This document shows, piece after piece, positions 610-39,729 of a stretch of 64,000 bases of DNA. Made by a program: the position numbers and the translations under genes. This DNA comes from Escherichia coli (lineage in GTDB: Bacteria > Pseudomonadota > Gammaproteobacteria > Enterobacterales > Enterobacteriaceae), in NCBI RefSeq assembly GCF_013315695.1, contig NZ_CP054353.1; one strand, 5' to 3'. The notes under the pieces are model-generated. The model ran no database searches and was not told the origin of the DNA. It saw only the letters and a program-made list of their open reading frames with translations. How positions within the stretch are numbered: position 1 is the first letter of the stretch; every line of letters begins with the position of its first letter.

Positions 610-800
610 AACGTTAGTGGGCAGTAGGCTGCCTGATTAATTTTCTTTTAAATGATAGATATAGAGTACCACATCGCGGCTTTCTATGCGTTGTTCAATA
701 AATTCGAACATAGGCTTCGATTTATTGCGCTATCTCTGTGGCAGGATTGTGAATAAAGTGTCAGCAAGCAACGGGGCATCGCCCATTCAAACATCTATAA

Positions 801-1415
<615 letters not shown>

Positions 1416-1432
1416 CCGGACACGATCTTGAT

Positions 1433-1456
1433 GTGGACTGTAGATATTCAGTCCAC
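1433..1456. terminator. Hairpin between convergent azoR and ynbD (possible bidirectional terminator)
   Basis: Inverted repeat gtggactg / agtccac with 9-nt loop immediately after the azoR stop; no strong T-tract. Confidence 0.3.
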
Positions 1457-1468
1457 ATCTCAATCCGC

Positions 1469-4532
<3,064 letters not shown>

Positions 4533-4547
4533 TTTCTCTATTTTCCT

Positions 4548-5444
4548 TCAGTAACAGCAGTAGCGAATAAAATAAAAAAATACCGGAGCGGTGAAAATTA
4601 ATGAGTCAATCCTGTCAAGGAGTCCGCCATGTCCTGGTAATAGTTTTCCACTATCTTTAACACCAATATCTCGTTTGATGGCTGACATCACTACATCGCC
4701 GCAAAAACCACTTACCCCAATCAGTAACCCCGCCAATAATGCCTGCCAGGCGTTTAAGGGTGTCAATAACGGTCCAATGATCATCGACGCTATCATGGTG
4801 GTGATTACGCCGCCCATCAGACCTTCCAGTGTTTTTCCCGGGCTGACTTTGGGGACCACTTTTCTTCTGCCGCAGGATTTTCCCCATAAATACTGTGCAA
4901 TATCGTTTGACTCGGTTAATGCCAAAAGAAATAACACCAGTAACGCCCCGCCCTGGATATTTGTGGTTGGCAACATTAATAACCAGGCGGCATGACTCAA
5001 GGCGAAAACGGTCATTATCCAGCCACAAAAAATGGCACTCACGGTATGCAGAAAACCAGAGGGGTCACCCACTAAAACTCGCCAGGTGGCTAATATCAGA
5101 AACCCAGCCAAAGGTATAAATAACAGAAACAGCTCAAAGCAATTAAAACCGATAAGCAAATAGTTAAGAGGAATACCCCAATATAACCAACGCGGAAAAT
5201 GTACGGATATAAGCGTACAATATTCTTTCAATGCCAGAAAACTTATCAGCGCAAAAAACGTCAACGTCATCCAGCGTGGACCTGAAATCACCATTGAAAA
5301 ACAAATGACGATGCCCCACCAGGTACGAATACGTAATGTAACCTCACCCCCTTTTCCCTCCGGTAACCGCCATATCAGAAAACGGTTTATCAGCGTTGCT
5401 AAAATTAACAACGCGAAAAGTGTTGCCAGAGATTTTTCCAGCAT
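4548..5444 (-). CDS. ynbB: CDP-diglyceride synthetase (CdsA)-like membrane protein
   Basis: 298-aa polytopic membrane ORF; ATG at 5442-5444 overlaps the ynbA stop by 1 nt (operon coupling). Confidence 0.85.
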   Translation of the reverse strand: MLEKSLATLFALLILATLINRFLIWRLPEGKGGEVTLRIRTWWGIVICFSMVISGPRWMTLTFFALISFLALKEYCTLISVHFPRWLYWGIPLNYLLIGFNCFELFLLFIPLAGFLILATWRVLVGDPSGFLHTVSAIFCGWIMTVFALSHAAWLLMLPTTNIQGGALLVLFLLALTESNDIAQYLWGKSCGRRKVVPKVSPGKTLEGLMGGVITTMIASMIIGPLLTPLNAWQALLAGLLIGVSGFCGDVVMSAIKRDIGVKDSGKLLPGHGGLLDRIDSLIFTAPVFFYFIRYCCY

Positions 5445-6049
5445 TATCTTTCAGCACTCATCAGGAGCACACTTCGACAACGATTAATCGCAGTCCAGAG
5501 AAGCAAAATTGAAGCAATGCTCCATAAAAGATTATTCCATTGCATCCACTGTGGATAAATGGCAACAGCCAGCCCCCACAACCCAAATATTAACGCACGA
5601 TCGCTTTTGCCGAATGGACCGGCATAACTGCGAATACCGTTAATCGTCTGCGCGAGTAAACCGCAAAACTCAGTTAATATGGTGCAAAATAACATGAGTA
5701 TTACGAGTGATGCGTTACTTTCCGGTAAAAATAAAAACGGTAAATAAAGCGCAATATCGGAAATAACATCGCCAGTTTCATTCAAAATCGCCCCAAGACG
5801 TGTTTGCTGATTGCACTCACGCGCCATCATGCCATCCAGCGCATTGAGCGCCATACGGATAAAAAGCACGATAGGCAATAGCAAAAAGAGGATGGGTTGT
5901 GCCACCAACATCAACAGCAATCCGGTAAGAAGAGAAAGCGCCAGTGCAGCAAGAGTGATGTGATTCGCTGTAACATGGTGCTTATTAAGCCAAAACATCG
6001 TCGGCCTTAACAGCGACTGAAAGAGCGGTTTTATCTGGTAGAGCGTCAT
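5444..6049 (-). CDS. ynbA: CDP-alcohol phosphatidyltransferase-family membrane protein
   Basis: ORF track 5444..6055; ATG at 6047-6049 gives 201 aa (MTLYQIKPL...); CDP-alcohol phosphatidyltransferase-like motif region DGMMARE. Confidence 0.8.
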   Translation of the reverse strand: MTLYQIKPLFQSLLRPTMFWLNKHHVTANHITLAALALSLLTGLLLMLVAQPILFLLLPIVLFIRMALNALDGMMARECNQQTRLGAILNETGDVISDIALYLPFLFLPESNASLVILMLFCTILTEFCGLLAQTINGIRSYAGPFGKSDRALIFGLWGLAVAIYPQWMQWNNLLWSIASILLLWTAINRCRSVLLMSAER

Positions 6050-6219
6050 TATCAATCCTTGATAATTCGGTTTGCGCTATGGTGCATCAATTCCCCTGAC
6101 GGAGATATCGCAACACGCCGCTTCATTAAAAATTCAGAATATATCAAGGTATTGGGGACTCACCGTCAGGAATGATTATCCCCAATAAATCAAGTGGTTA
6201 AAAATTATTACGCTGTTAT

Positions 6220-6597
6220 TCAATACAACTCATTAAGTTTTCTCATCGCTTGTTCCCGTATTGCGCGCGTCTTACCGTTAAGCGCCAGCTGGCGGACTAA
6301 ATCCAGTTCAGGGTTAACAAGCTCTAACGCCAGCAAAGGATCACGTTTCAGCCTCGCCTTCAATACATCAACTGGGAAACGGGGATCATTCATCGCCATA
6401 ATCCACCACTCGGGATCAATTTCTGCCGCTAGTGCCGCAGACGGTGTATGGCGATTGTTAAGTGCGCCGAACTTGAAAAATGTAAGATTGCTTTTCGCCA
6501 GCGTACTCCACCATATACGATCCGGTTGTTTTGCCAGTTTATCCAGTTGCGCTAATGCATCGGAGTCAAGTGCATAATAAACACGTAACGCTTCGTT
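6220..6597 (-). pseudogene. ydbD: 3-prime remnant of ydbD, truncated by IS1
   Basis: Reverse-strand frame is open from the IS1 boundary (6597) to TGA at 6220-6222 (...TNEALRVYYALDSDALAQLDKLAKQPDRIWW...KLNELY*), with no start codon; position matches the gene preceding ynbA in K-12. Confidence 0.6.
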
Positions 6598-6652
6598 GGT
6601 GATGCTGCCAACTTACTGATTTAGTGTATGATGGTGTTTTTGAGGTGCTCCA

Positions 6653-6928
6653 GTGGCTTCTGTTTCTATCAGCTGTCCCTCCTGTTCAGCTACTGACGGG
6701 GTGGTGCGTAACGGCAAAAGCACCGCCGGACATCAGCGCTATCTCTGCTCTCACTGCCGTAAAACATGGCAACTGCAGTTCACTTACACCGCTTCTCAAC
6801 CCGGTACGCACCAGAAAATCATTGATATGGCCATGAATGGCGTTGGATGCCGGGCAACAGCCCGCATTATGGGCGTTGGCCTCAACACGATTTTACGTCA
6901 CTTAAAAAACTCAGGCCGCAGTCGGTAA
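6653..6928 (+). CDS. insA: IS1 InsA (transposition inhibitor / N-terminal part of InsAB transposase)
   Basis: 91-aa [42 protein letters not shown]..., zinc-finger CxxC...CxxC; A6C slippery site ttaaaaaac near its 3-prime end. Confidence 0.95.
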
Positions 6929-7350
6929 CCTCGCGCATACAGCCGGGCAGTGACGTCATCGTCTGCGCGGAAATGGACGAACAGTGGGGCTATGTCGGGG
7001 CTAAATCGCGCCAGCGCTGGCTGTTTTACGCGTATGACAGGCTCCGGAAGACGGTTGTTGCGCACGTATTCGGTGAACGCACTATGGCGACGCTGGGGCG
7101 TCTTATGAGCCTGCTGTCACCCTTTGACGTGGTGATATGGATGACGGATGGCTGGCCGCTGTATGAATCCCGCCTGAAGGGAAAGCTGCACGTAATCAGC
7201 AAGCGATATACGCAGCGAATTGAGCGGCATAACCTGAATCTGAGGCAGCACCTGGCACGGCTGGGACGGAAGTCGCTGTCGTTCTCAAAATCGGTGGAGC
7301 TGCATGACAAAGTCATCGGGCATTATCTGAACATAAAACACTATCAATAA
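6847..7350 (+). CDS. insB: IS1 InsB frame (expressed as InsAB by -1 frameshift)
   Basis: 167-aa ORF in -1 frame relative to insA, ending ...HYLNIKHYQ. Confidence 0.9.
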
Positions 7351-7505
7351 GTTGGAGTCATTACCACTTGAACCGATAATAAACGCAGAAATTCTATTTT
7401 GTAGCTCATTGTTGCCTCCTGTGTGAATTGTTCGAATCTACCAGGCTGCGATGAAAGAAGTCGTGTAGTAGAGAGCTATACCCGCAACAAGCGGGGCAGA
7501 CGTTC

Positions 7506-7829
7506 TTATTTCTGTAACCATTTTCCGTTAATGCCCTGCACATATTCTCCTGATTTAGCGCGAGCTACGAGCTTTTGCCCGGCAAGTTTCGCGATATCAT
7601 CTACCGACACATTATTTTGCTTTGCCAGTTGTTGATAGCTCGCTTTACGTTCGGCATTAATGTCGGTTACTAATTTCTCTGTTTCAGCATCTGTTTTCAG
7701 CGCAACCAGATAACCATAAAATGTTTCCCCTACCCGCCCCTGAGTTCTGGCTTCATCCAGAGTCAATGCCATTACATTGCTGCTTACCAAGCCAACAAGA
7801 AATGCACAAAGAAGTAATGTTCTTTTCAT
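7506..7829 (-). CDS. ydbL: Periplasmic protein YdbL (DUF1318)
   Basis: ORF track 7506..7910; start set at MKRTLLLCAFLVG... signal peptide (107 aa), last gene of ydbH-ynbE-ydbL. Confidence 0.85.
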   Translation of the reverse strand: MKRTLLLCAFLVGLVSSNVMALTLDEARTQGRVGETFYGYLVALKTDAETEKLVTDINAERKASYQQLAKQNNVSVDDIAKLAGQKLVARAKSGEYVQGINGKWLQK

Positions 7830-7836
7830 CATCACC

Positions 7837-8022
7837 TCAAAAAAGATCGCTACGGGTCTCAAGCAGCTCTTCGACATCTTTGTCTGCCTTGATGATGATC
7901 TCATGCTCAATTTTAACGTTCATATTGATAGTGATCGGTTCCTTAGGTGCAGCGACTTCAATGCGAGGCGTACAGCCAACCAGCATAAAAGATGACGTCA
8001 ACGCAGCCAGTAAAATTTTCAT
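7837..8022 (-). CDS. ynbE: Lipoprotein YnbE
   Basis: 61-aa ORF MKILLAALTSSFMLVGC... with lipobox LVGC; overlaps the ydbH stop by 4 nt. Confidence 0.85.
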   Translation of the reverse strand: MKILLAALTSSFMLVGCTPRIEVAAPKEPITINMNVKIEHEIIIKADKDVEELLETRSDLF

Positions 8023-10658
8023 TGTTTTTCCTCACACTCTTTTCCTTGCGGACAGTCATTTCCCGGCAGACGCGCGTTCTGCTCCAGCCATGCCTGGAGA
8101 TTATCGCCAAAGCGTAAACTGCGCCACAGCGTAAAAATATTCTCTTCATGATGGTAATTAAGATTTACCGTACCGCTTTTACCATCAACGCGACTGGTAC
8201 CTGTAATGTTGGCCTGCATGGTTAATAAACCGAGATTATCTAAATTAATTTTTGTCGATGAACGGCTAATTTCCATATAGCGCAACCAGTTAATTGCTGA
8301 ACCCGCGGTCATATTGTCTTTCACCACCGCATCTGCGGTGTCTTTATCCAGCCGCAAGGTCATCGGCCCGCTATTTGCCAGCCAGCCGTCTTTCACTATC
8401 CATTTTTCGTTGTTTAGCCATAACGGCAATGCACCACTAAATGCCCCGGACATGGCGAATTGTTTCGGATTGACGGCGCTAACCAGTTCGCTGGAGGAAA
8501 GATTATTCAGCCGCAACAGCGCCGGGTCATGTTGCGGCATACGTAATTGTTTCATCAGCACGTTACCGCCTAACACATCAACGCTAACATCAGTCAACAG
8601 CAATGGTTCTTCTTCAGTCCACGGATAACGACCTTGCAAATCAGCCGTAATATTTTTCGCTGTCACCAGATTAATCACTTCGGCAATTCGCAACGTAACG
8701 GGGCCGCGAGTCCCCAGATGCCAGGCTCCATCGGCAAAACGGAAAGGCAGGACAAAATCGACACCGTTAACCTGATTATCTGGCATCCAGGCACTACCGC
8801 CTTTCAACACACCGTGCCCTCCCGCGCGGAATCCTTGTTCAGGCGCAGCAGAAAATGCGACCTGGGCATATAGTTCGCCATCGCGTAAGTTCATCTTCCA
8901 GTCGGGTGGCACCAGCGGCTGGAATACGGTCAGTGATTGTTTAGGCCACCAGGCGTTACCGCGCAGACGAATACCGTCCCAGCGACCATTTACCCGAACC
9001 GGGCCAATCTCACCAGCATGTAAATCGCCTTTAAAGAGGAAATACGTCGGATCGCGTCCATCGACGCTAAATTTTAAGGTTGATGGCGGTAACACACTGC
9101 CGCCAGTGAACAGCGTTTGCCCGGCGTCCAGTGACAGCGCGCCGCTAAAGGAGGGATGCTGTGCGTCACGTACCCAGACGACGGGCTTGTCGAGAATTAG
9201 TCGCGGCTTTTCAACCGTCATCGTACCGTATTGTAACTGGTCGAAACCGGTGGAGAGATCGGTCAGCGTAATCGTGCTGTCATGCCACTCACCCTTTCCT
9301 GCGACATCCCAGGTGGCATTCATCGGTGTAAAACTGCCTTTTCCCCAGTAGCGCCACTGCCAGCGGCCAGCGTCAGGGAGAAAATCATTCGCCAGTCCAT
9401 CCATATGCAGCACGAAATCGCCCAGTTCATTTTCATGCGCCTGCAAAATGGCCTGCAAACGTCCGTCAACACCACGTTGGGTGACTTTTACACCCGCTAA
9501 AGGCCAGCGGATTTCATCGATGTCCAGCGAATCAATGACTCTTCCCTTTGAACGAAGTAACGCGCCTGGCTCAAAGGTCAACGTTGGGTCAGACAGACTT
9601 CCACTTAGCTGCGCAGGTAAACGGGCATATAAAATGAGGTCCGCCTGTTTCGCTTCACCGGTCAGTTGCATAGGCAGCTGGCTGTTATCCATGCTTAATT
9701 TTCCTGGGCCAAAATTAAGCACCGCGTTGCCTTTACCCGCTTGCCCCTGGGTCAGCACACTCAGTCGTCCGCTGACCAGAGCGTTCTCGAGCCCTGCCTG
9801 CCAGTTGTCGACTTTGACACCCAGTCGGCCACTCAAAGGAAAACCTGCATACGGCCAGCTCCAGCGACCATCGCTTACGGTCAATTGTTGACGAGTAATT
9901 TGCCACGGCAAATCGAGCAACGGATCGCCGTTATCCCGTGCCAGCACGATCAATTGCCCGCTATTTTCCTGCCAGTCCAGCTCTGCATCCACCAGTGACG
10001 GTTCCTGCGGCAAGTTTAACGTCGCAGTAGCATGCCCACTTACCGGAAGTCCATCCGGCACGAGCGGCATAGTAAATTCCCCCTCCAGTTTAACCGGCGG
10101 CTGATTTTCAAACGCGACGACATCCAGTTCGCTGACTGTAAGTTGTTGCCCTTTCAGCTGGCCTTGAAATTTAACTTTTTCGCCCTGATAACGCAGTTGC
10201 TGGATATCGGAGGTTAATGCGAGAGAGAGTTTTCCCTGCCATTCCTGCCAGGGAGAAAAAATCAGTTTATCGATATTGATCCAAGTGTTAGGCAACATGG
10301 CCTGCCACTGCGCGAGGTTTTTTGGAGCGGCTGGCGATTGCTCCGTCTGCGGCAATTTCGCCAGACAAGTAGAATCAAGTTCTACCGTGCCGACGTTCAA
10401 TAACCAGCGGCTGGGATGTGAAAGGCTGGCGTTGGTGATATGCGCAAGCTGACAATCTCCCACCAGATAACGGAGATCGGGAATGATTAAACCTTTACGC
10501 GTAATGCGTGGGCTTTCATCTAATGCAATACGTGTCCCGAGCGGTAGCCAGATGCCCGCCAGCGTGGGAACCCACAGCCCGAGCGTCATCAGCAGCGTCA
10601 ACGGCACAAGAATAATCAGTAATAACAGCGCGAGAACGGCTTTATATTTACCCAGCAT
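8019..10658 (-). CDS. ydbH: AsmA/TamB-like large envelope protein YdbH
   Basis: 879-aa ORF with N-terminal TM anchor (MLGKYKAVLALLLLIILVPL...); divergent from ldhA as in K-12. Confidence 0.9.
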   Translation of the reverse strand: MLGKYKAVLALLLLIILVPLTLLMTLGLWVPTLAGIWLPLGTRIALDESPRITRKGLIIPDLRYLVGDCQLAHITNASLSHPSRWLLNVGTVELDSTCLAKLPQTEQSPAAPKNLAQWQAMLPNTWINIDKLIFSPWQEWQGKLSLALTSDIQQLRYQGEKVKFQGQLKGQQLTVSELDVVAFENQPPVKLEGEFTMPLVPDGLPVSGHATATLNLPQEPSLVDAELDWQENSGQLIVLARDNGDPLLDLPWQITRQQLTVSDGRWSWPYAGFPLSGRLGVKVDNWQAGLENALVSGRLSVLTQGQAGKGNAVLNFGPGKLSMDNSQLPMQLTGEAKQADLILYARLPAQLSGSLSDPTLTFEPGALLRSKGRVIDSLDIDEIRWPLAGVKVTQRGVDGRLQAILQAHENELGDFVLHMDGLANDFLPDAGRWQWRYWGKGSFTPMNATWDVAGKGEWHDSTITLTDLSTGFDQLQYGTMTVEKPRLILDKPVVWVRDAQHPSFSGALSLDAGQTLFTGGSVLPPSTLKFSVDGRDPTYFLFKGDLHAGEIGPVRVNGRWDGIRLRGNAWWPKQSLTVFQPLVPPDWKMNLRDGELYAQVAFSAAPEQGFRAGGHGVLKGGSAWMPDNQVNGVDFVLPFRFADGAWHLGTRGPVTLRIAEVINLVTAKNITADLQGRYPWTEEEPLLLTDVSVDVLGGNVLMKQLRMPQHDPALLRLNNLSSSELVSAVNPKQFAMSGAFSGALPLWLNNEKWIVKDGWLANSGPMTLRLDKDTADAVVKDNMTAGSAINWLRYMEISRSSTKINLDNLGLLTMQANITGTSRVDGKSGTVNLNYHHEENIFTLWRSLRFGDNLQAWLEQNARLPGNDCPQGKECEEKQ

Positions 10659-10865
10659 GGGTAGTTAATATCCTGATTTAGCGAAAAATTAAGCATTCAA
10701 TACGGGTATTGTGGCATGTTTAACCGTTCAGTTGAAGGTTGCGCCTACACTAAGCATAGTTGTTGATGAATTTTTCAATATCGCCATAGCTTTCAATTAT
10801 ATTTGAAATTTTGTAAGATATTTTTAGTAGCTTAAATGTGATTCAACATCACTGGAGAAAGTCTT

Positions 10866-11855
10866 ATGAAACTCGCCGTTTATAGCACAAAACAGTACGA
10901 CAAGAAGTACCTGCAACAGGTGAACGAGTCCTTTGGCTTTGAGCTGGAATTTTTTGACTTTCTGCTGACGGAAAAAACCGCTAAAACTGCCAATGGCTGC
11001 GAAGCGGTATGTATTTTCGTAAACGATGACGGCAGCCGCCCGGTGCTGGAAGAGCTGAAAAAGCACGGCGTTAAATATATCGCCCTGCGCTGTGCCGGTT
11101 TCAATAACGTCGACCTTGACGCGGCAAAAGAACTGGGGCTGAAAGTAGTCCGTGTTCCAGCCTATGATCCAGAAGCCGTTGCTGAACACGCCATCGGTAT
11201 GATGATGACGCTGAACCGCCGTATTCACCGCGCGTATCAGCGTACCCGTGACGCCAACTTCTCTCTGGAAGGTCTGACCGGCTTTACTATGTATGGCAAA
11301 ACGGCAGGCGTTATCGGTACCGGTAAAATCGGTGTGGCGATGCTGCGCATTCTGAAAGGTTTTGGTATGCGTCTGCTGGCGTTCGATCCGTATCCAAGTG
11401 CGGCGGCGCTGGAACTCGGTGTAGAGTATGTCGATCTGCCAACCCTGTTCTCTGAATCAGACGTTATCTCTCTGCACTGCCCGCTGACACCGGAAAACTA
11501 CCACCTGTTGAACGAAGCCGCCTTCGATCAGATGAAAAATGGCGTGATGATCGTCAATACCAGTCGCGGTGCATTGATTGATTCTCAGGCAGCAATTGAA
11601 GCGCTGAAAAATCAGAAAATTGGTTCGTTGGGTATGGACGTGTATGAAAACGAACGCGATCTGTTCTTTGAAGATAAATCCAACGACGTAATCCAGGATG
11701 ACGTATTCCGTCGTCTGTCTGCCTGCCACAACGTGCTGTTTACCGGGCACCAGGCATTCCTGACAGCAGAAGCTCTGACCAGTATTTCTCAGACTACGCT
11801 GCAAAACTTAAGCAATCTGGAAAAAGGCGAAACCTGCCCGAACGAACTGGTTTAA
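10866..11855 (+). CDS. ldhA: Fermentative D-lactate dehydrogenase (NAD-dependent)
   Basis: 329-aa ORF MKLAVYSTKQYDKKYLQQVNESFGFELEFF... with GxGxxG NAD-binding motif (GVIGTGKIG). Confidence 0.97.
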   Translation: MKLAVYSTKQYDKKYLQQVNESFGFELEFFDFLLTEKTAKTANGCEAVCIFVNDDGSRPVLEELKKHGVKYIALRCAGFNNVDLDAAKELGLKVVRVPAYDPEAVAEHAIGMMMTLNRRIHRAYQRTRDANFSLEGLTGFTMYGKTAGVIGTGKIGVAMLRILKGFGMRLLAFDPYPSAAALELGVEYVDLPTLFSESDVISLHCPLTPENYHLLNEAAFDQMKNGVMIVNTSRGALIDSQAAIEALKNQKIGSLGMDVYENERDLFFEDKSNDVIQDDVFRRLSACHNVLFTGHQAFLTAEALTSISQTTLQNLSNLEKGETCPNELV

Positions 11856-11863
11856 TCTTGCCG

Positions 11864-11890
11864 CTCCCCTGCATTCCAGGGGAGCTTATT
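11864..11890 (+). terminator. Putative ldhA terminator hairpin
   Basis: Stem ctcccctg / caggggag with 5-nt loop, 8 nt after the ldhA stop, followed by cttattc. Confidence 0.4.
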
Positions 11891-11965
11891 CAGATAATCC
11901 CCAAAGACCTTTCATCCTCTATTCTTAAAATAGCCCTGAGTCAGAAACTGTAATTGAGAACCACA

Positions 11966-12388
11966 ATGAAGAAAGTAGCCGCGTTTGTTGCGCTAAGCCT
12001 GCTGATGGCGGGATGTGTAAGTAATGACAAAATTGCTGTAACCCCAGAACAGCTACAGCATCATCGCTTTGTGCTGGAAAGCGTAAACGGTAAGCCCGTG
12101 ACCAGCGATAAAAATCCGCCAGAAATCAGCTTTGGTGAAAAAATGATGATTTCCGGCAGCATGTGTAACCGCTTTAGCGGTGAAGGCAAACTGTCTAATG
12201 GTGAACTGACAGCCAAAGGACTGGCAATGACCCGTATGATGTGCGCCAACCCACAGCTTAATGAACTCGATAACACCATTAGCGAAATGCTGAAAGAAGG
12301 TGCACAAGTGGATCTGACCGCGAACCAGTTAACGCTGGCGACCGCGAAACAGACATTAACTTATAAGCTGGCGGATTTAATGAATTAA
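11966..12388 (+). CDS. hslJ: Heat-shock lipoprotein HslJ
   Basis: ORF track 11954..12388; ATG at 11966 gives MKKVAAFVALSLLMAGC... (140 aa) with lipobox. Confidence 0.9.
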   Translation: MKKVAAFVALSLLMAGCVSNDKIAVTPEQLQHHRFVLESVNGKPVTSDKNPPEISFGEKMMISGSMCNRFSGEGKLSNGELTAKGLAMTRMMCANPQLNELDNTISEMLKEGAQVDLTANQLTLATAKQTLTYKLADLMN

Positions 12389-12651
12389 TAGCTGCCACAG
12401 CTCCCGGCGGCAAGTGACTGTTCGCTACAGCGTTTGCCGTTGGGTAATGCACACATCCCAATCGCCGTACCATCCAGTTGACGGGCAACAGAAAGCGAAC
12501 CGCCGATCATTGCACAATTTGCTTCTCCACTACTGGACATCGACGCTTTTAAACCTGGCGCTACGTGCGCCGCAGTCGCCTGCTGAACAGGTTCACTATT
12601 ACACGCCGACAATAATAAAGCGGCACACCCTACCCAAAACGCTGCTCGCAT
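12385..12651 (-). CDS. ydbJ: Small periplasmic/lipoprotein YdbJ (DUF333)
   Basis: 88-aa ORF MRAAFWVGCAALLLSACNSEPVQ...; convergent with hslJ, 4-nt overlap. Confidence 0.85.
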   Translation of the reverse strand: MRAAFWVGCAALLLSACNSEPVQQATAAHVAPGLKASMSSSGEANCAMIGGSLSVARQLDGTAIGMCALPNGKRCSEQSLAAGSCGSY

Positions 12652-12923
12652 CTTTTCTTCCTCTGATCTTCAAGCCAAACGACACCGCCATAAATAATAG
12701 GCAGCACAGAGGGCGACGTCGAGAGCTGTCCTGCGCGTTGCCCCGCATTTTTACTTTTTTATGGCTATTTTTTGCCCTCTGTTTGATCAAAACATTCATT
12801 ACGCTGATGTGGGGGACACAAAAGCGAAAATGCAGAAGAAAGCCATTTGCTAAAATTGAAGGATTACTACTGGGCGCGCAGCAATTTCGTGCGCCCCTCA
12901 TTTGCGCAATGTAAGGGTGTCAT

Positions 12924-15900
12924 ATGATTACTATTGACGGTAATGGCGCGGTTGCTTCGGTGGCGTTTCGCACCAGTGAAGTTATCGCCATCTACCCTAT
13001 TACCCCCAGTTCCACGATGGCAGAACAGGCTGATGCCTGGGCCGGAAACGGCTTGAAGAACGTTTGGGGAGACACACCACGCGTGGTTGAAATGCAGTCG
13101 GAAGCGGGTGCTATCGCTACCGTGCATGGCGCTTTGCAGACGGGTGCCCTTTCAACATCGTTTACGTCATCGCAGGGTTTGCTGCTGATGATCCCGACGC
13201 TGTACAAACTGGCAGGCGAACTGACGCCATTTGTCCTGCATGTAGCGGCACGTACCGTTGCCACACATGCACTCTCTATTTTTGGCGATCATTCCGACGT
13301 TATGGCGGTGCGCCAGACGGGTTGCGCGATGTTGTGTGCGGCTAACGTCCAGGAAGTGCAAGACTTTGCTCTCATTTCGCACATCGCAACGCTGAAGAGC
13401 CGCGTGCCATTTATTCATTTCTTTGATGGTTTCCGCACGTCCCACGAAATCAATAAAATTGTCCCGCTGGCCGATGACACTATTCTTGATCTCATGCCGC
13501 AGGCCGAAATTGATGCTCATCGCGCCCGGGCGCTCAACCCGGAACATCCGGTGATCCGCGGTACGTCCGCCAATCCTGACACTTATTTCCAGTCTCGCGA
13601 AGCCACCAACCCCTGGTACAACGCGGTCTATGACCATGTTGAACAGGCGATGAATGATTTCGCTGCCGCGACAGGTCGTCAGTATCAACCGTTTGAGTAT
13701 TATGGGCATCCGCAAGCGGAACGGGTGATTATCCTGATGGGCTCAGCCATTGGCACCTGTGAAGAAGTGGTTGATGAATTGCTAACCCGTGGCGAAAAAG
13801 TCGGCGTGCTGAAAGTTCGCCTGTACCGTCCCTTCTCCGCCAAACACTTGCTACAAGCTCTGCCGGGATCCGTACGCAGCGTGGCGGTACTGGACAGAAC
13901 CAAAGAACCCGGTGCCCAGGCAGAACCGCTCTATCTGGATGTGATGACCGCACTGGCAGAAGCCTTTAATAATGGCGAGCGCGAAACCCTGCCCCGTGTC
14001 ATTGGTGGGCGCTATGGTCTTTCATCCAAAGAATTTGGCCCGGACTGTGTACTGGCGGTATTTGCCGAGCTCAACGCGGCTAAACCGAAAGCGCGCTTTA
14101 CGGTTGGTATTTACGATGATGTGACCAATCTGTCACTGCCGTTGCCGGAAAACACCCTGCCAAACTCGGCGAAACTTGAAGCCTTGTTTTATGGCCTTGG
14201 TAGTGATGGCAGCGTTTCCGCGACCAAAAACAATATCAAGATTATCGGTAATTCCACGCCGTGGTACGCACAGGGCTATTTTGTTTACGACTCCAAAAAG
14301 GCGGGCGGCCTGACGGTTTCTCATCTTCGTGTGAGCGAACAGCCGATTCGTTCCGCTTATCTGATTTCCCAGGCTGATTTTGTTGGCTGCCACCAGTTGC
14401 AGTTTATCGATAAATATCAGATGGCTGAACGTTTAAAACCTGGCGGCATTTTCCTGCTCAACACGCCGTACAGCGCAGATGAAGTATGGTCGCGCTTGCC
14501 GCAGGAAGTTCAGGCCGTGTTAAACCAGAAAAAAGCGCGCTTCTATGTGATTAACGCGGCGAAAATCGCCCGCGAATGTGGCCTGGCGGCCCGTATTAAT
14601 ACCGTCATGCAGATGGCTTTTTTCCATCTTACGCAAATTCTGCCTGGCGATAGCGCCCTCGCAGAATTGCAGGGTGCGATTGCCAAAAGTTACAGTAGCA
14701 AAGGCCAGGATCTGGTGGAACGCAACTGGCAGGCTCTGGCGCTGGCACGTGAATCCGTAGAAGAAGTTCCGCTGCAACCAGTAAATCCGCACAGCGCCAA
14801 TCGACCGCCAGTGGTTTCCGATGCCGCCCCTGATTTCGTGAAAACCGTAACCGCGGCGATGCTCGCCGGGCTTGGTGATGCCCTCCCCGTTTCGGCGCTG
14901 CCGCCAGACGGCACCTGGCCGATGGGCACCACGCGCTGGGAAAAACGCAATATCGCCGAAGAGATCCCCATCTGGAAAGAGGAACTCTGCACCCAATGTA
15001 ACCACTGCGTCGCTGCTTGCCCACACTCAGCTATTCGCGCAAAAGTGGTACCGCCTGAAGCGATGGAAAACGCCCCTGCCAGCCTGCATTCGCTGGATGT
15101 GAAATCGCGTGATATGCGCGGGCAGAAATATGTCTTGCAGGTGGCTCCGGAAGATTGCACGGGTTGTAACCTGTGCGTCGAAGTTTGCCCGGCGAAAGAC
15201 CGTCAGGATCCAGAGATTAAAGCCATCAATATGATGTCGCGGCTGGAACATGTCGAGGAAGAGAAAATCAATTACGACTTCTTCCTGAATTTACCAGAAA
15301 TCGATCGCAGCAAACTGGAACGTATTGATATTCGTACATCGCAACTGATTACACCGCTGTTTGAATATTCAGGTGCTTGCTCTGGTTGTGGCGAGACGCC
15401 GTATATTAAATTGCTGACTCAGCTCTATGGCGATCGGATGTTGATCGCTAACGCTACGGGTTGTTCTTCAATTTATGGTGGTAACCTGCCCTCCACACCA
15501 TATACCACTGATGCCAACGGTCGTGGACCGGCATGGGCGAACTCGCTGTTTGAAGATAACGCCGAATTCGGCCTTGGTTTCCGCCTTACGGTCGATCAAC
15601 ACCGTGTCCGCGTGCTGCGTCTGCTGGATCAATTTGCCGATAAAATCCCGGCGGAATTACTGACTGCGTTGAAATCAGACGCTACGCCAGAGATTCGTCG
15701 TGAACAGGTTGCAGCTTTACGCCAGCAACTCAACGATGTTGCCGAAGCACATGAACTGCTACGTGACGCAGATGCTCTGGTGGAAAAATCAATCTGGCTG
15801 ATTGGTGGTGACGGCTGGGCTTACGATATCGGCTTTGGTGGTCTGGATCATGTATTGAGTTTGACGGAAAACGTCAACATTCTGGTGCTGGATACGCAAT

Positions 15901-16448
15901 GCTATTCCAACACCGGTGGTCAGGCGTCGAAAGCGACACCGCTGGGTGCAGTAACTAAGTTCGGCGAGCACGGCAAACGTAAAGCGCGTAAAGATCTTGG
16001 CGTCAGTATGATGATGTACGGTCATGTTTATGTGGCGCAGATTTCTCTCGGCGCGCAGCTGAACCAGACGGTGAAAGCGATTCAGGAAGCGGAAGCGTAT
16101 CCGGGACCATCGCTGATCATTGCTTATAGCCCGTGTGAAGAGCATGGTTACGATCTGGCTCTCAGCCACGACCAGATGCGCCAACTCACTGCTACCGGCT
16201 TCTGGCCGCTATATCGCTTCGATCCTCGTCGTGCCGATGAAGGCAAACTGCCGCTGGCGCTGGATTCACGCCCGCCGTCAGAAGCACTGGAAGAAACGTT
16301 ACTTCATGAGCAACGTTTCCGTCGTCTGAATTCGCAGCAGCCAGAAGTGGCAGAACAGTTATGGAAAGATGCTGCAGCTGATTTGCAAAAACGCTATGAC
16401 TTCCTGGCACAAATGGCCGGAAAAGCGGAAAAAAGCAACACCGATTAA
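12924..16448 (+). CDS. ydbK: Pyruvate:flavodoxin/ferredoxin oxidoreductase
   Basis: 1174-aa ORF with tandem 4Fe-4S ferredoxin motifs (CTQCNHCVAACP, CTGCNLCVEVCP) and a TPP-binding region; matches K-12 YdbK (Pfo) in length. Confidence 0.95.
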   Translation: MITIDGNGAVASVAFRTSEVIAIYPITPSSTMAEQADAWAGNGLKNVWGDTPRVVEMQSEAGAIATVHGALQTGALSTSFTSSQGLLLMIPTLYKLAGELTPFVLHVAARTVATHALSIFGDHSDVMAVRQTGCAMLCAANVQEVQDFALISHIATLKSRVPFIHFFDGFRTSHEINKIVPLADDTILDLMPQAEIDAHRARALNPEHPVIRGTSANPDTYFQSREATNPWYNAVYDHVEQAMNDFAAATGRQYQPFEYYGHPQAERVIILMGSAIGTCEEVVDELLTRGEKVGVLKVRLYRPFSAKHLLQALPGSVRSVAVLDRTKEPGAQAEPLYLDVMTALAEAFNNGERETLPRVIGGRYGLSSKEFGPDCVLAVFAELNAAKPKARFTVGIYDDVTNLSLPLPENTLPNSAKLEALFYGLGSDGSVSATKNNIKIIGNSTPWYAQGYFVYDSKKAGGLTVSHLRVSEQPIRSAYLISQADFVGCHQLQFIDKYQMAERLKPGGIFLLNTPYSADEVWSRLPQEVQAVLNQKKARFYVINAAKIARECGLAARINTVMQMAFFHLTQILPGDSALAELQGAIAKSYSSKGQDLVERNWQALALARESVEEVPLQPVNPHSANRPPVVSDAAPDFVKTVTAAMLAGLGDALPVSALPPDGTWPMGTTRWEKRNIAEEIPIWKEELCTQCNHCVAACPHSAIRAKVVPPEAMENAPASLHSLDVKSRDMRGQKYVLQVAPEDCTGCNLCVEVCPAKDRQDPEIKAINMMSRLEHVEEEKINYDFFLNLPEIDRSKLERIDIRTSQLITPLFEYSGACSGCGETPYIKLLTQLYGDRMLIANATGCSSIYGGNLPSTPYTTDANGRGPAWANSLFEDNAEFGLGFRLTVDQHRVRVLRLLDQFADKIPAELLTALKSDATPEIRREQVAALRQQLNDVAEAHELLRDADALVEKSIWLIGGDGWAYDIGFGGLDHVLSLTENVNILVLDTQCYSNTGGQASKATPLGAVTKFGEHGKRKARKDLGVSMMMYGHVYVAQISLGAQLNQTVKAIQEAEAYPGPSLIIAYSPCEEHGYDLALSHDQMRQLTATGFWPLYRFDPRRADEGKLPLALDSRPPSEALEETLLHEQRFRRLNSQQPEVAEQLWKDAAADLQKRYDFLAQMAGKAEKSNTD

Positions 16449-16476
16449 ATGCTCTGGATAAGGATCATCCAATTCT

Positions 16477-16581
16477 AAAAAAAAGCCCGGACGACGGTTC
16501 GGGCTTGTCTCATTATTTGTTGGATAAACAGTAACAAGGGTCCAACAGAAAATAATCTTTGTGACAATAAAGGCATATAAC
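16477..16581 (-). ncRNA. micC: MicC sRNA (Hfq-dependent repressor of ompC)
   Basis: Reverse complement reads GTTATATGCCTTTATTGTCAC... and ends in hairpin GCCCGAACCGTCGTCCGGGC plus T8; the 5-prime seed and terminator match MicC; lies between ydbK and ompN as in K-12. Confidence 0.8.
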
Positions 16582-16838
16582 CCGCGAAGAATAACGCATC
16601 ACTATTTAAATGTATAATTTTTATTTTGTATATGTCGCCAACAATATATTCACCAGACTTATTATCATTTCAGAAGAATTATTTGATTAAGGTTTTACTT
16701 AAGGCGTAACAAATAATATTTATCGTCTAACTGAACTTCTCCTTTAGGATGCTTTCACTCCCCGAAATGGGGATAAAAGGCAAGGTGATGCTGCCAACTT
16801 ACTGATTTAGTGTATGATGGTGTTTTTGAGGTGCTCCA

Positions 16839-17114
16839 GTGGCTTCTGTTTCTATCAGCTGTCCCTCCTGTTCAGCTACTGACGGGGTGGTGCGTAACGG
16901 CAAAAGCACCGCCGGACATCAGCGCTATCTCTGCTCTCACTGCCGTAAAACATGGCAACTGCAGTTCACTTACACCGCTTCTCAACCCGGTACGCACCAG
17001 AAAATCATTGATATGGCCATGAATGGCGTTGGATGCCGGGCAACAGCCCGCATTATGGGCGTTGGCCTCAACACGATTTTACGTCACTTAAAAAACTCAG
17101 GCCGCAGTCGGTAA
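16839..17114 (+). CDS. insA: IS1 InsA
   Basis: 91-aa ORF identical to the InsA of copy 1. Confidence 0.95.
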
Positions 17115-17536
17115 CCTCGCGCATACAGCCGGGCAGTGACGTCATCGTCTGCGCGGAAATGGACGAACAGTGGGGCTATGTCGGGGCTAAATCGCGCCAG
17201 CGCTGGCTGTTTTACGCGTATGACAGGCTCCGGAAGACGGTTGTTGCGCACGTATTCGGTGAACGCACTATGGCGACGCTGGGGCGTCTTATGAGCCTGC
17301 TGTCACCCTTTGACGTGGTGATATGGATGACGGATGGCTGGCCGCTGTATGAATCCCGCCTGAAGGGAAAGCTGCACGTAATCAGCAAGCGATATACGCA
17401 GCGAATTGAGCGGCATAACCTGAATCTGAGGCAGCACCTGGCACGGCTGGGACGGAAGTCGCTGTCGTTCTCAAAATCGGTGGAGCTGCATGACAAAGTC
17501 ATCGGGCATTATCTGAACATAAAACACTATCAATAA
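17033..17536 (+). CDS. insB: IS1 InsB frame
   Basis: 167-aa ORF identical to the InsB of copy 1. Confidence 0.9.
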
Positions 17537-17551
17537 GTTGGAGTCATTACC

Positions 17552-18357
17552 TCGATTACGGACGTAATTATGGCGTAATGTACGACATCGAAGGCTGGAC
17601 CGATATGCTGCCTGAATTTGGCGGTGACTCTTATACCAATGCAGACAACTTTATGACTGGTCGTGCCAACGGCGTCGCGACTTATCGTAATACTGATTTC
17701 TTCGGTCTGGTAAATGGTCTGAACTTCGCAGTGCAGTATCAAGGTAACAACGAAGGTGCCAGTAATGGTCAGGAAGGCACCAACAACGGACGTGATGTTC
17801 GCCATGAAAACGGTGACGGCTGGGGTCTTTCCACAACATATGATTTAGGCATGGGCTTTAGCGCTGGTGCGGCATACACCTCATCTGACCGCACCAATGA
17901 CCAGGTTAACCATACTGCGGCAGGTGGTGATAAAGCAGACGCGTGGACTGCTGGGCTAAAATACGATGCTAACAATATTTACCTGGCAACCATGTATTCA
18001 GAAACACGTAACATGACCCCGTTTGGCGACAGCGATTATGCAGTTGCGAACAAAACCCAGAACTTTGAAGTTACTGCACAGTACCAGTTTGATTTTGGTC
18101 TGCGTCCGGCAGTCTCTTTCCTGATGTCTAAAGGCCGTGACCTTCACGCTGCCGGTGGTGCAGACAACCCGGCAGGTGTTGATGATAAAGATCTGGTTAA
18201 ATACGCCGATGTTGGCGCGACTTACTATTTCAACAAAAATATGTCCACCTACGTTGACTATAAAATCAACCTGTTGGATGAAGATGACAGCTTCTACGCT
18301 GCCAACGGCATCTCTACCGATGATATTGTCGCTTTAGGTCTGGTTTATCAGTTCTAA
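17552..18357 (+). pseudogene. ompN: Outer-membrane porin OmpN, 5-prime-truncated by IS1 (about 110 N-terminal codons missing)
   Basis: Frame is open from the first base after IS1 (..[25 protein letters not shown]...LGLVYQF*), which aligns to the middle and C-terminus of OmpC-family porins; no signal peptide or promoter remains. Confidence 0.85.
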
Positions 18358-18416: not shown

Positions 18417-18932
<516 letters not shown>

Positions 18933-19516: not shown

Positions 19517-20431
19517 ATGTACTCAATAAAAAAAGTAACCATGCTCTTGGGGTGCCTCGCCCTCACCTGCTCGATCGCATTTCAGGCGAGTGCAACTGAA
19601 AAATTCAAGGTCATTACAACATTTACCATCATCGCAGATATGGCCAAAAACGTGGCTGGAGATGCTGCAGAAGTCTCATCCATAACCAAGCCCGGTGCAG
19701 AAATTCATGAGTATCAGCCTACCCCTGGCGATATTAAACGTGCGCAGGAGGCACAACTGATTCTCGCCAATGGTATGAATCTGGAATTGTGGTTCCAACG
19801 CTTTTACCAGCATCTTAATGGGGTTCCAGAAGTAATTGTCTCTTCGGGTGTGACGCCAGTAGGGATCACTGAAGGCCCCTATGAGGGCAAACCTAACCCC
19901 CATGCCTGGATGTCGCCAGATAATGCTCTGATTTACGTCGATAATATTCGTGATGCGTTGATAAAATACGATCCGGCAAATGCACAAACCTACCAACGTA
20001 ATGCCGATACTTATAAAGCCAAGATTACCCAAACCCTTGCCCCCCTGCGTAAGCAGATTGCTGAACTCCCTGAGAATCAGCGATGGATGGTCACCAGTGA
20101 AGGGGCTTTTTCTTATCTCGCACGCGATTTGGGGCTAAAAGAGCTTTATCTGTGGCCGATTAATGCCGATCAACAAGGCACGCCGCAGCAGGTACGTAAG
20201 GTTGTTGATATGGTGAAGAAAAATCATATCCCGGCAGTCTTTAGCGAGAGTACGATTTCCGATAAACCAGCGCGTCAGGTTGCGCGTGAAACCGGCGCGC
20301 ACTACGGCGGTGTACTCTATGTCGATTCCCTGAGCACAGAAAACGGCCCGGTACCTACGTATATCGACCTTCTGAAGGTTACTACCAGTACGCTGGTACA
20401 GGGAATTAAAGCCGGGAAAAGGGAGAAATAA
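19517..20431 (+). CDS. sitA: Mn/Fe ABC transporter periplasmic substrate-binding protein SitA
   Basis: 304-aa ORF with signal peptide, cluster-9 metal-binding family (SitA/YfeA/MntC-like). Confidence 0.9.
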
Positions 20432-21258
20432 TGATGCAATCTGCGGGCATTGTCGTTAATGATGTTACTGTCACCTGGCGTAACGGGCACACAGCACTGC
20501 GCGATGCATCCTTCACAGTACCAAGTGGATCTATTGCCGCTCTGGTTGGGGTAAACGGTTCCGGAAAATCGACGTTGTTTAAAGCGATTATGGGATTTGT
20601 GCGTCTGACCAGCGGAAAGATATCTGTTCTGGGTATTCCCACGCGACAGGCGCTACAGAAAAACCTGGTTGCCTACGTCCCTCAGTCAGAAGAGGTTGAC
20701 TGGTCATTTCCTGTACTAGTGGAAGATGTGGTGATGATGGGCCGCTATGGGCACATGGGTATGTTGCGTATAGCCAAAAAGAGGGATCGTCAGATTGTCA
20801 CCGATGCGCTGGAACGTGTCGATATGGTGGATTTTCGCCATCGACAAATCGGCGAGCTTTCCGGTGGACAAAAGAAACGCGTCTTTCTGGCGAGAGCGAT
20901 TGCACAGCAGGGTGATGTGATCCTGCTGGATGAACCTTTTACCGGCGTTGATGTGAAAACCGAAGCGAAAATCATCAGCCTGTTGAGGGAGTTACGCGCG
21001 GAAGGCAAGACGATGCTTGTCTCAACGCACAATCTCGGCTCAGTCACGACATTTTGCGATTATACGGTCATGGTCAAAGGCACCGTCCTGGCAAGCGGGC
21101 CGACAGACACCACTTTTACAGCCGAGAACCTGGAGCTGGCTTTTAGCGGCGTACTGCGCCATGTCACACTTAACGCCTCGGAAGAAAGCATTATTACTGA
21201 CGATGAACACCCTTTTGTGGCACATCGACCGTCAGCGGTGCAGAGGGAAGCAAGATGA
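20431..21258 (+). CDS. sitB: Mn/Fe ABC transporter ATP-binding protein SitB
   Basis: 275-aa ORF with Walker [13 protein letters not shown] signature LSGGQKKR and Walker B ILLDEP. Confidence 0.9.
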
Positions 21259-22112
21259 ACGTGCTACTGGAACCCTTCAGCTATGAATATATGCTCAATG
21301 CGATGTGGGTCTCGGCGATGGTCGGCGGTCTCTGCGCTTTCCTGTCATGCTATCTGATGCTAAAAGGCTGGTCGCTGATTGGCGATGCGCTGTCGCACTC
21401 TATTGTCCCGGGTGTTGCGGGGGCATATATGCTGGGGCTTCCGTTTTCTCTGGGAGCCTTCTTTTCCGGCGGACTGGCAGCGGGCAGCATGCTGTTTCTT
21501 AACCAACGCACTCGCTTAAAAGAAGATGCCATCATCGGCCTGATCTTCTCCTCCTTTTTTGGCCTGGGGCTGTTTATGGTGTCATTGAACCCGACATCCG
21601 TGAACATTCAGACCATCGTCCTAGGCAATATTCTGGCAATCGATCCGGCGGATATCCTGCAACTCACTATCATTGGCATTCTCTCGATCATCGTGCTTTT
21701 TTTCAAATGGAAAGATCTTATGGTGACCTTTTTCGACGAGAATCACGCCCGTGCTATTGGATTGCATCCGGGCAGATTAAAAATCCTCTTCTTCACCCTG
21801 CTGTCGGTTTCGACCGTTGCGGCGCTGCAAACGGTTGGTGCCTTTCTGGTGATCTGTCTGGTGGTGACTCCCGGTGCAACAGCATGGTTGTTAACCGATC
21901 GTTTTCCCCGCCTGCTCATAATTGCTGTAACTATTGGCAGTGTAACCAGTTTCCTCGGCGCGTGGGTCAGTTACTTTCTGGACGGCGCGACAGGTGGAAT
22001 CATCGTGGTGGCGCAGACACTGCTGTTTCTTTTAGCATTTGTATTTGCGCCCACCCATGGGCTTTTGGCAAATCGTCGGCGTGCGCATAAAGCGCTGGAG
22101 GATCGCTCATGA
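21255..22112 (+). CDS. sitC: Mn/Fe ABC transporter permease SitC
   Basis: 285-aa polytopic membrane ORF; start overlaps the sitB stop. Confidence 0.9.
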
Positions 22113-22966
22113 TGGCATTATTACTGGAGCCACTGCAGTTCACCTTTATGAGTCACGCACTGCTGATTTCACTGGTAGTTTCCATACCCTGTGCGCTGCT
22201 GTCGGTCTTTCTGGTCCTGAAAGGTTGGGCACTGATGGGTGACGCGATGAGTCATGCGGTTTTTCCTGGCATCGTGCTTGCCTGGATTCTGGGGTTACCT
22301 CTGGCTACAGGGGCATTTATCGCCGGAGTATTCTGCGCGGTGGCGACGGGATACCTGAAAGACAACAGCCGAATCAAGCAAGATACAGTGATGGGGATTG
22401 TTTTTTCTGGCATGTTTGCCGCAGGTCTGATCTTGTATATTGCAGTCAAACCAGACATACATCTTGACCATATTCTTTTCGGCGACATGCTCGGGGTAAC
22501 CATCGGCGATATAATCCAGACGATGATTATTGCCGGGCTGGTTACACTTGTTATTAGCGTAAAATGGCGGGATTTTTTGCTGTTCAGCTTTGATTATCAA
22601 CAGGCGCAGGTAAGCGGTTTGCATACGCGATGGCTGCATTATGGGCTGCTGTGCATGGTTTCCCTGACCATTGTGGCGACGCTGAAAGCAGTAGGTATCA
22701 TTCTCTCCATTTCTCTGCTCATTGCGCCTGGCGCCATTGCGGTACTCCTGACACAACGCTTTCATATTGCACTCCTACTGGCGACTGGCATATCGGTAAT
22801 AGTCTCAATGACTGGTGTTTGGCTGTCCTTTTTTATCGACAGCGCACCCGCTCCGACGATTGTCGTCTTATTCGCGGTTGTGTTCATCATGACGTTTACC
22901 GTTATCAGTTTCAACGCACGCACAAAGGGAAACGCTCATAGACAGGATCTGTTATCCCCCAATTAG
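22109..22966 (+). CDS. sitD: Mn/Fe ABC transporter permease SitD
   Basis: 285-aa polytopic membrane ORF paralogous to SitC; start overlaps the sitC stop. Confidence 0.9.
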   Translation: MMALLLEPLQFTFMSHALLISLVVSIPCALLSVFLVLKGWALMGDAMSHAVFPGIVLAWILGLPLATGAFIAGVFCAVATGYLKDNSRIKQDTVMGIVFSGMFAAGLILYIAVKPDIHLDHILFGDMLGVTIGDIIQTMIIAGLVTLVISVKWRDFLLFSFDYQQAQVSGLHTRWLHYGLLCMVSLTIVATLKAVGIILSISLLIAPGAIAVLLTQRFHIALLLATGISVIVSMTGVWLSFFIDSAPAPTIVVLFAVVFIMTFTVISFNARTKGNAHRQDLLSPN

Positions 22967-24233: not shown

Positions 24234-24556
24234 AATAAGTGACAGATACATTAATACATAACGAAAAATCTTTTTAGCTACTCATTCATATCAATAGTGC
24301 CCTACCATAGGGCACATTATTCGTGGAACTCGTTTATGACAAAAGAATTTTGATGGTCTGCCTGATGCAACAGATATAATTCTGGGAGTGTTGAGTAAGA
24401 GTATTCACCGGCGCTCAACACAAATGCCAGCAAGCACGAGAAAGAGCAGGTAAGCCTGAGTGTTCAGGAAATGTTTGAAAAGGCTAATATGTGGCTGGTT
24501 TCAGATTAAACGCCTTGAACCGTCATATTACTTAAGTACAATCCGCCTAGACTAGC

Positions 24557-25072: not shown

Positions 25073-25148
25073 TTTCATCCTACCCAATAAAACGAGGCGC
25101 TCGGCCCCTTAATATTATTTAGACGCAAGCGTCGGTAATGACTCCAAC

Positions 25149-25652
25149 TTATTGATAGTGTTTTATGTTCAGATAATGCCCGATGACTTTGTCATGCAGC
25201 TCCACCGATTTTGAGAACGACAGCGACTTCCGTCCCAGCCGTGCCAGGTGCTGCCTCAGATTCAGGTTATGCCGCTCAATTCGCTGCGTATATCGCTTGC
25301 TGATTACGTGCAGCTTTCCCTTCAGGCGGGATTCATACAGCGGCCAGCCATCCGTCATCCATATCACCACGTCAAAGGGTGACAGCAGGCTCATAAGACG
25401 CCCCAGCGTCGCCATAGTGCGTTCACCGAATACGTGCGCAACAACCGTCTTCCGGAGCCTGTCATACGCGTAAAACAGCCAGCGCTGGCGCGATTTAGCC
25501 CCGACATAGCCCCACTGTTCGTCCATTTCCGCGCAGACGATGACGTCACTGCCCGGCTGTATGCGCGAGGTTACCGACTGCGGCCTGAGTTTTTTAAGTG
25601 ACGTAAAATCGTGTTGAGGCCAACGCCCATAATGCGGGCTGTTGCCCGGCAT
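25149..25652 (-). CDS. insB: IS1 InsB frame
   Basis: 167-aa ORF identical to the other InsB copies. Confidence 0.9.
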
Positions 25653-25846
25653 CCAACGCCATTCATGGCCATATCAATGATTTTCTGGTGCGTACCGGGT
25701 TGAGAAGCGGTGTAAGTGAACTGCAGTTGCCATGTTTTACGGCAGTGAGAGCAGAGATAGCGCTGATGTCCGGCGGTGCTTTTGCCGTTACGCACCACCC
25801 CGTCAGTAGCTGAACAGGAGGGACAGCTGATAGAAACAGAAGCCAC
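25571..25846 (-). CDS. insA: IS1 InsA
   Basis: 91-aa ORF identical to the other InsA copies. Confidence 0.95.
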
Positions 25847-25925
25847 TGGAGCACCTCAAAAACACCATCATACACTAAATCAGTAAGTTGGCAGCATCAC
25901 CCCCGGCGTTAAGGGGAGAGATAAG

Positions 25926-39627: not shown

Positions 39628-39722
39628 ACCGGCGCAGAGGAGACCATGCCGGATTTAAGACGCGGATGCACTGCTGTGTGTACTGTAGAGTCTGGCGGAT
39701 GTCGACAGACTCTATTTTTTTA
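39628..39722 (+). ncRNA. mcaS: McaS (IsrA) sRNA
   Basis: ACCGGCGCAGAGGAGACCATGCCGGATTTAAGACGCGGATGCACTGCTGTGTGTACTGTAGAGTCTGGCGGATGTCGACAGACTCTATTTTTTT; matches McaS and its terminator; lies between smrA and abgR as in K-12. Confidence 0.8.
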
Positions 39723-39729
39723 TGCAGTT

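Follow-up and report, generated by a model that had tools for sequence, protein, structure and literature searches.

What separated the porin gene ompN from its 5' end at this locus, and what became of the small RNA gene micC on the other side of the break? We addressed these questions in a window of 64 kb (one stretch of 64,000 nucleotides from an Escherichia coli genome, to whose numbering all coordinates refer), in which an IS1 element lies directly against the ompN reading frame and micC lies to the left of the element. Our answer, drawn from sequence comparison and held with high confidence, is that the quiescent porin gene ompN was inactivated in two steps, both driven by IS1.

Layout of the micC-ompN locus

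The closest genome to the window is that of E. coli MSB1_4I (NZ_LR898874.1), from a human rectal swab in Australia. The features of the locus, and the evidence on which each was placed, are as follows.

12924 to 16448, plus strand: nifJ/ydbK (pyruvate:flavodoxin oxidoreductase), intact; 1174-aa ORF, the same sequence being annotated nifJ in MSB1_4I
~16477 to 16581, minus strand: micC sRNA gene, 105 nt; 5' end at 16581, end of the terminator U-run at 16477; Rfam RF00121
16582 to 16783, no strand: the 202 bp still present of the original 227 bp between micC and ompN; K-12 alignment; 32% G+C
16775 to 16783, no strand: AAAAGGCAA, left copy of the 9-bp IS1 target-site duplication; found on both flanks of the same IS1 in MSB1_4I
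16784 to 17551, plus strand: complete IS1 (IS1A-like), 768 bp; terminal inverted repeats, ORFs, and MSB1_4I annotation
17551 to 17552, no strand: new junction at which the right end of IS1 meets ompN codon 110 and a 362-bp deletion ends; MSB1_4I alignment
17552 to 18357, plus strand: ompN 3' remnant (pseudogene), comprising two bases of codon 110, codons 111 to 377, and the stop; translation compared with MSB1_4I OmpN
18498 to 18932, plus strand: uspF, intact, the right neighbor; ORF ending at 18932, with the ATG placed at 18498 from the same 435-bp uspF in MSB1_4I

The spacer between nifJ/ydbK and the start of the micC match at 16469 is 20 bp. Between uspF and a Rac prophage remnant farther right lies the sitABCD iron/manganese transporter operon (19517 to 22966); the corresponding interval of K-12 contains only ttcC'/Rac.

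The element itself is a complete IS1. Its ends, GGTGATGCTGCCAACTTACTGAT on the left and GGTAATGACTCCAACTTATTGAT on the right (reverse complement), form imperfect terminal inverted repeats, in keeping with an IS1 of ~768 bp and repeats of ~23 bp. Within it, insA occupies 16839 to 17114 and the insB' frame ends at 17536; the A6C motif TTAAAAAAC at ~17088 is that of the -1 frameshift between insA and insB'. The identical copy in MSB1_4I is annotated as [quoted passage not shown]

A first-pass annotation of this DNA had described IS1 as adjoining ompN at an internal codon, and the junction at 17551/17552 does fall within codon 110, after the first base of that codon. Translation of 17552 to 18357 yields OmpN residues 111 to 377, identical to WP_000837933.1, the 377-aa OmpN of MSB1_4I. 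In this frame a start codon first appears at M119 (17578), and the signal peptide is absent; a functional gene, with the full 377-aa frame, its start codon, and a signal peptide, is not found here. Judged by its sequence, the remnant is a pseudogene from which an exportable porin cannot be made, and a tblastn search with full-length OmpN returned no other OmpN-like sequence in the 64-kb window. We also considered a fusion frame running from IS1 into the remnant and rejected it: insB terminates at 17536, and within IS1, 21 codons upstream, the ompN frame meets a stop. The remnant is 98.5% identical to its K-12 counterpart; for nifJ the figure is 94.7%. For annotation, these results mean that 17552 to 18357 should be entered as an ompN pseudogene and micC placed on the minus strand.

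OmpN has been described as a "quiescent" porin, repressed by H-NS and the sigma-E pathway and undetectable under normal laboratory conditions, and its transcription start has never been mapped (PMC5745476). In K-12, OmpN comes to light in an hns mutant or on depletion of sigma-E (PMC5745476). The promoter presumably lies within the 202 bp to the left of IS1 and now points into the element. It had been proposed that the promoter was gone, but only the last 25 of the 227 bp of the intergenic region are missing. Because the other 202 bp are kept to the left of IS1, the promoter region is, on sequence grounds, cut off from the gene by the element and not removed.

Order of events at the IS1-ompN junction

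MSB1_4I is collinear with the whole 64-kb window and differs from it by three SNPs and one indel; there are no mismatches over positions 1 to 17551 and three SNPs over 17552 to 64000. All three IS1 copies in the window are common to both genomes. The sole structural difference is a segment of 362 bp (2423076 to 2423437 in the MSB1_4I record) that MSB1_4I carries in addition, directly to the right of this IS1, a value close to the ~0.4 kb that had been estimated as removed beside the element. In MSB1_4I, the left junction is that of the window, and the insertion lies 25 bp before ompN, which is annotated there as an intact gene of 1134 bp. The 362 bp absent from the window consist of the right copy of the target-site duplication, the 25-bp leader, and 328 nt of ompN. 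The last of these amount to 109 codons plus 1 nt, in agreement with the earlier description of a gene without its signal peptide and first ~110 codons.

One of the three SNPs, at 39633, falls at position 6 of the McaS sRNA (39628 to 39723), where the window has C and MSB1_4I has T; the K-12 base at this position we take to be C. The other two are at 41524 and 59946.

IS1 target duplications are 8 or 9 bp long (PMC12428005). No such duplication surrounds the IS1 in the window, where the flanks are GATAAAAGGCAA on the left (ending in AAAAGGCAA) and TCGATTACGGAC on the right (starting with TCGATTACG). The same insertion in MSB1_4I is bounded by a perfect 9-bp duplication, AAAAGGCAA. Because MSB1_4I combines the same left junction with this duplication and an intact ompN, the left junction is taken as original and the right junction as derived, and the missing duplication in the window is, by this comparison of sequences, secondary and caused by the deletion.

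These observations show the following order of events. In the first step, IS1 entered the AT-rich ompN leader 25 bp before the ATG, generating the 9-bp duplication AAAAGGCAA and placing itself between ompN and both its promoter region and any transcription reading through from nifJ/ydbK. OZ547117 has the resulting arrangement in common with E. coli MSB1_4I. An IS1 insertion exerts strong polarity whichever way it is oriented, and with IS1 lying between the promoter region and the gene, ompN was probably silenced already in the MSB1_4I state, receiving transcription neither from its own promoter nor as read-through from nifJ. In the second step, confined to the lineage of the window, a 362-bp deletion ran rightward from the exact right end of IS1. 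It took away the right copy of the duplication, the 25-bp leader in which the ribosome-binding site lay, and codons 1 to 109 of ompN, start codon and signal peptide included. This later loss of the 5' end was probably neutral.

The distribution of the junction bears on the age of the second step. As a single piece, the IS1/ompN junction of the window occurred in none of 5,426 complete E. coli genomes and in no GTDB representative genome; the matches at 100% identity in the 5,426 genomes are two separate pieces, IS1 and ompN. The deleted 362-bp segment is kept in 5,409 of the 5,426 (median, one copy), and genomes in this set with more than one copy of the deleted ompN segment are rare, the maximum being two per genome. 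Relatives with the same rare micC allele and an IS1-free site, such as MS 21-1, also exist. Because such relatives exist, the segment is so widely kept, and the junction was seen in none of these genomes, the deletion is a derived, very recent, and lineage-specific state.

By what route was the segment lost? Alignment with MSB1_4I reveals the pattern of an IS-mediated adjacent deletion: the IS is kept, the left junction is unchanged, and the gap begins at the first base past the IS1 right end. The most likely route for the second step would be intramolecular replicative transposition by IS1 ("adjacent deletion"), and we assign the event to the transposase with moderate confidence. We regard as possible, though somewhat unlikely, that ompN codon 110 received a second IS1, oriented like the first, and that RecA-dependent recombination then removed one IS1 together with the 362 bp between the two. 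The product would match the window: a single IS1 would remain, bordered on the left by the flank of the first insertion and on the right by that of the second, so that the borders would share no duplication; indeed, both routes give the same sequence. IS1 is found within ompN at nearby sites in other E. coli strains (GN03590, ~16 bp away, as well as TBE6 and UTME-14), and the annotation of one genome shows a split ompN along with two copies of IS1. Recombination, however, calls for one event more and for two IS1 elements only 362 bp apart, and an intermediate with IS1 at both sites was seen in none of the 5,426 genomes, a count that is not decisive.

It is very improbable that the 362-bp gap is an assembly artifact at a repeat boundary and that the strain really has the MSB1_4I structure. 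The gap does start at the exact end of a multicopy repeat, and the junction is in no other public complete E. coli genome. A start at the exact IS end is, however, also expected of a genuine IS-mediated deletion, and collapse errors usually drop repeat copies, not unique sequence. The three identical IS1 copies are spanned unbroken in the window, implying a long-read or hybrid assembly, and the flanks are otherwise identical base for base. Least probable of all is an IS1 that first inserted within ompN at codon 110 and then deleted leftward into the intergenic region: the window alone, with no duplication at either junction, does not reveal the direction, but the MSB1_4I IS1 at the exact left junction, with its perfect 9-bp duplication and intact ompN on the right, rules it out.

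IS1 insertion followed by rightward adjacent deletion, our preferred reading, makes this locus a clean, datable case of the two events in succession, with a sister genome only three SNPs apart in 64 kb. It also shows that loss of ompN, a gene carried by >99% of complete E. coli genomes, can leave micC untouched. The window strain would offer a natural ompN-null, micC-positive allele beside an isogenic strain, MSB1_4I, that has IS1 upstream of ompN, and the pair could be used to ask if micC needs the part of the shared control region toward ompN for its expression.

micC and its control region

The Rfam model RF00121 matches the minus strand of the window at 16469 to 16584 with 104.1 bits (gathering score, 90), over model positions 1 to 123 of 123. 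The gene lies between nifJ (end at 16448) and the ompN remnant and is transcribed away from ompN, as in K-12. Its K-12-equivalent +1 is at 16581, 202 bp from IS1, where a distance of ~200 bp had been given; the left flank of the element had been called AT-rich intergenic DNA, which its composition bears out (32% G+C at 16582 to 16783, compared with 49% for the window).

The first 22 nt of MicC, the seed that pairs with ompC, are identical to those of K-12. The body carries substitutions and is 6 nt shorter overall, and the terminator folds into a hairpin with the K-12 stem, one changed loop base, and a U8 tail. The seed and terminator are thus as intact as the first-pass annotation had held, and alignment with K-12 uncovered no disrupting changes in either. 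A simple terminator scan missed this terminator, which we count as a false negative because folding and the Rfam match both show it.

We then compared the allele and its target across genomes. The micC allele of the window is in the minority, being matched at ≥95% identity in ~500 of 5,404 genomes, with matches of 80 to 90% in 4,798; on this distribution it is a natural minority allele and not the result of damage. The divergence extends over micC and its promoter region (16469 to 16790), which are 80 to 90% identical to those of most E. coli strains, with the seed and terminator as conserved islands. MicC nt 1 to 40 are predicted to pair with positions -28 to -14 of the K-12 ompC leader, and with bases farther upstream, in a duplex of -30.6 kcal/mol; the value for K-12 MicC is -32.0 kcal/mol. 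Of 5,371 genomes with an ompC leader, 5,358 match the K-12 leader at ≥99% identity, and the target is almost certainly present in the window strain as well. Because micC, transcribed away from IS1, keeps its promoter fragment, seed, and terminator, repression of ompC translation by MicC is expected to go on.

The promoter fragment can be placed precisely. Dam et al. (2017, PMC5745476) drove a micC-lacZ fusion in K-12 from a 184-nt promoter fragment (primers SD1/SD2). The equivalent fragment, 16582 to 16765 in the window, is wholly kept, and IS1 starts 18 bp beyond it. Since the promoter region of the window has several substitutions relative to K-12, the K-12 promoter data carry over by homology only. 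In an hns mutant, micC- and ompN-lacZ fusions rose 6- to 11-fold (PMC5745476). IS1, 202 bp upstream of the micC start, lies within this H-NS-repressed region, and for this reason it could alter micC transcription, either up or down.

A bolder, quite unlikely proposal, made by analogy, is that IS1 in this H-NS-silenced control region did change micC output and that selection, not neutral decay, later removed the 5' end of ompN. IS1 and IS5 insertions are known to activate the bgl operon, and IS1 may in the same way disrupt an H-NS filament here. If this were true, OmpC and outer-membrane permeability would be lower in this clone, which is rich in IS1 and most closely matched by an isolate from a human rectal swab, and selection might have acted, for example, to remove a de-silenced porin or receptor. 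We retain the simpler reading, in which the loss was probably neutral.

IS1 insertions in the region and comparison with known systems

To place the insertion among others of its kind, we compiled the IS1 elements at this locus in other E. coli genomes. IS1 occurs at seven different micC-ompN sites across eight genomes; the six sites besides that of the window are given here, each with its genome.

YZMc3-1: IS1 in the micC body
TUM13064: IS1 across the micC +1 and seed
ES6: IS1 in the micC promoter, ~-18 to -26
UTME-14: IS1 in ompN, at ~codon 21
TBE6: IS1 in ompN, at ~codon 83
GN03590: IS1 in ompN, at ~codon 103

Three of these six sites disrupt micC itself or its promoter, and the strains concerned (YZMc3-1, TUM13064, and ES6) are natural candidates for micC-null or micC-down strains with an intact ompN. 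All of the insertions at the other sites have duplications of 8 to 10 bp. They are simple insertions with nothing deleted, whereas the window is the only case found in which the 5' end of ompN has been lost at this junction. We rejected the idea that the micC-ompN locus is an IS1 hot spot. A rough estimate, from a median of ~10 IS1-matching places per ~5-Mb genome and a locus of 1.6 kb, predicts ~17 insertions in the 5,426 genomes, and at most 35 were observed, a number that includes clonal duplicates and copies outside the locus; this is no convincing enrichment.

Within the window, the IS1 at 16784 to 17551 is 100% identical to the two other copies, at 6598 to 7365 (plus strand) and 25134 to 25901 (minus strand). 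Because the element is complete and identical to these copies, and because at least 39 places in MSB1_4I match IS1, the sequences indicate that IS1 is abundant in this clone and has been active recently. None of the three copies in the window has a target-site duplication; each therefore probably marks a deletion or rearrangement.

Copy 1 (6598 to 7365) is flanked by TAACGCTTCGTT and ACTTGAACCGAT, with no duplication. It adjoins a 5'-truncated DUF2773 gene (6220 to 6597) on one side, and ydbL is near the other side. In K-12, the interval between ydbL and ynbA presumably holds the feaRB-tynA-paa cluster and ydbA to ydbD; if this gene content is right, copy 1 is the mark of a much larger deletion, common to MSB1_4I. 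Copy 3 (25134 to 25901, minus strand) lies within the Rac prophage remnant, between ydaF and the genes on the sit side, and is also present in MSB1_4I. Its flanks, GACGCAAGCGTC and CCCGGCGTTAAG, have no duplication, which suggests another IS1-associated deletion or rearrangement.

The region holds other damaged genes as well. At ~63053, a partial ABC permease gene (probably ycjO) is joined directly to a 5'-truncated ycjT, according to the matching annotation of MSB1_4I, which suggests that an internal part of the ycjM-ycjV sugar cluster was deleted; no IS lies at this junction. Further signs of gene decay in the region are intR, the gene for the Rac integrase (32146 to 33379), and a DinI-like gene (24323 to 24509), both annotated as frameshifted in MSB1_4I, which is identical in sequence there.

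The locus as a whole has the gene order and orientation of the K-12 ompN-micC-ydbK locus (Chen et al. 2004; Dam et al. 2017, PMC5745476), and the intergenic length of 227 bp in K-12 is also the original length in the window (202 plus 25 bp). The two differ in that the ompN of the window is interrupted and lacks its 5' 328 nt, whereas that of K-12 does not. The element, the mechanism, and the genes are all already known, and the case is one of ordinary gene decay, of very recent date, in a clone of E. coli that is rich in IS1. Deletions adjacent to IS1 were first seen at the gal region of E. coli, and the replicative (adjacent) deletions of IS1 were reportedly analyzed by Turlan and Chandler in 1995. 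An insertion followed by an IS-adjacent deletion with loss of the duplication is documented in the Lenski long-term lines (PMC11708052). The classic IS1 adjacent deletions and the Lenski-line events resemble the window in that the IS is kept, one junction is that of the progenitor, the duplication is lost, and the deletion extends from the exact IS terminus, with insertion coming first and deletion second. The deletion in the window is of the same kind as the classic ones; it differs from them in being small (362 bp) and in having removed part of a gene that was probably silenced already.
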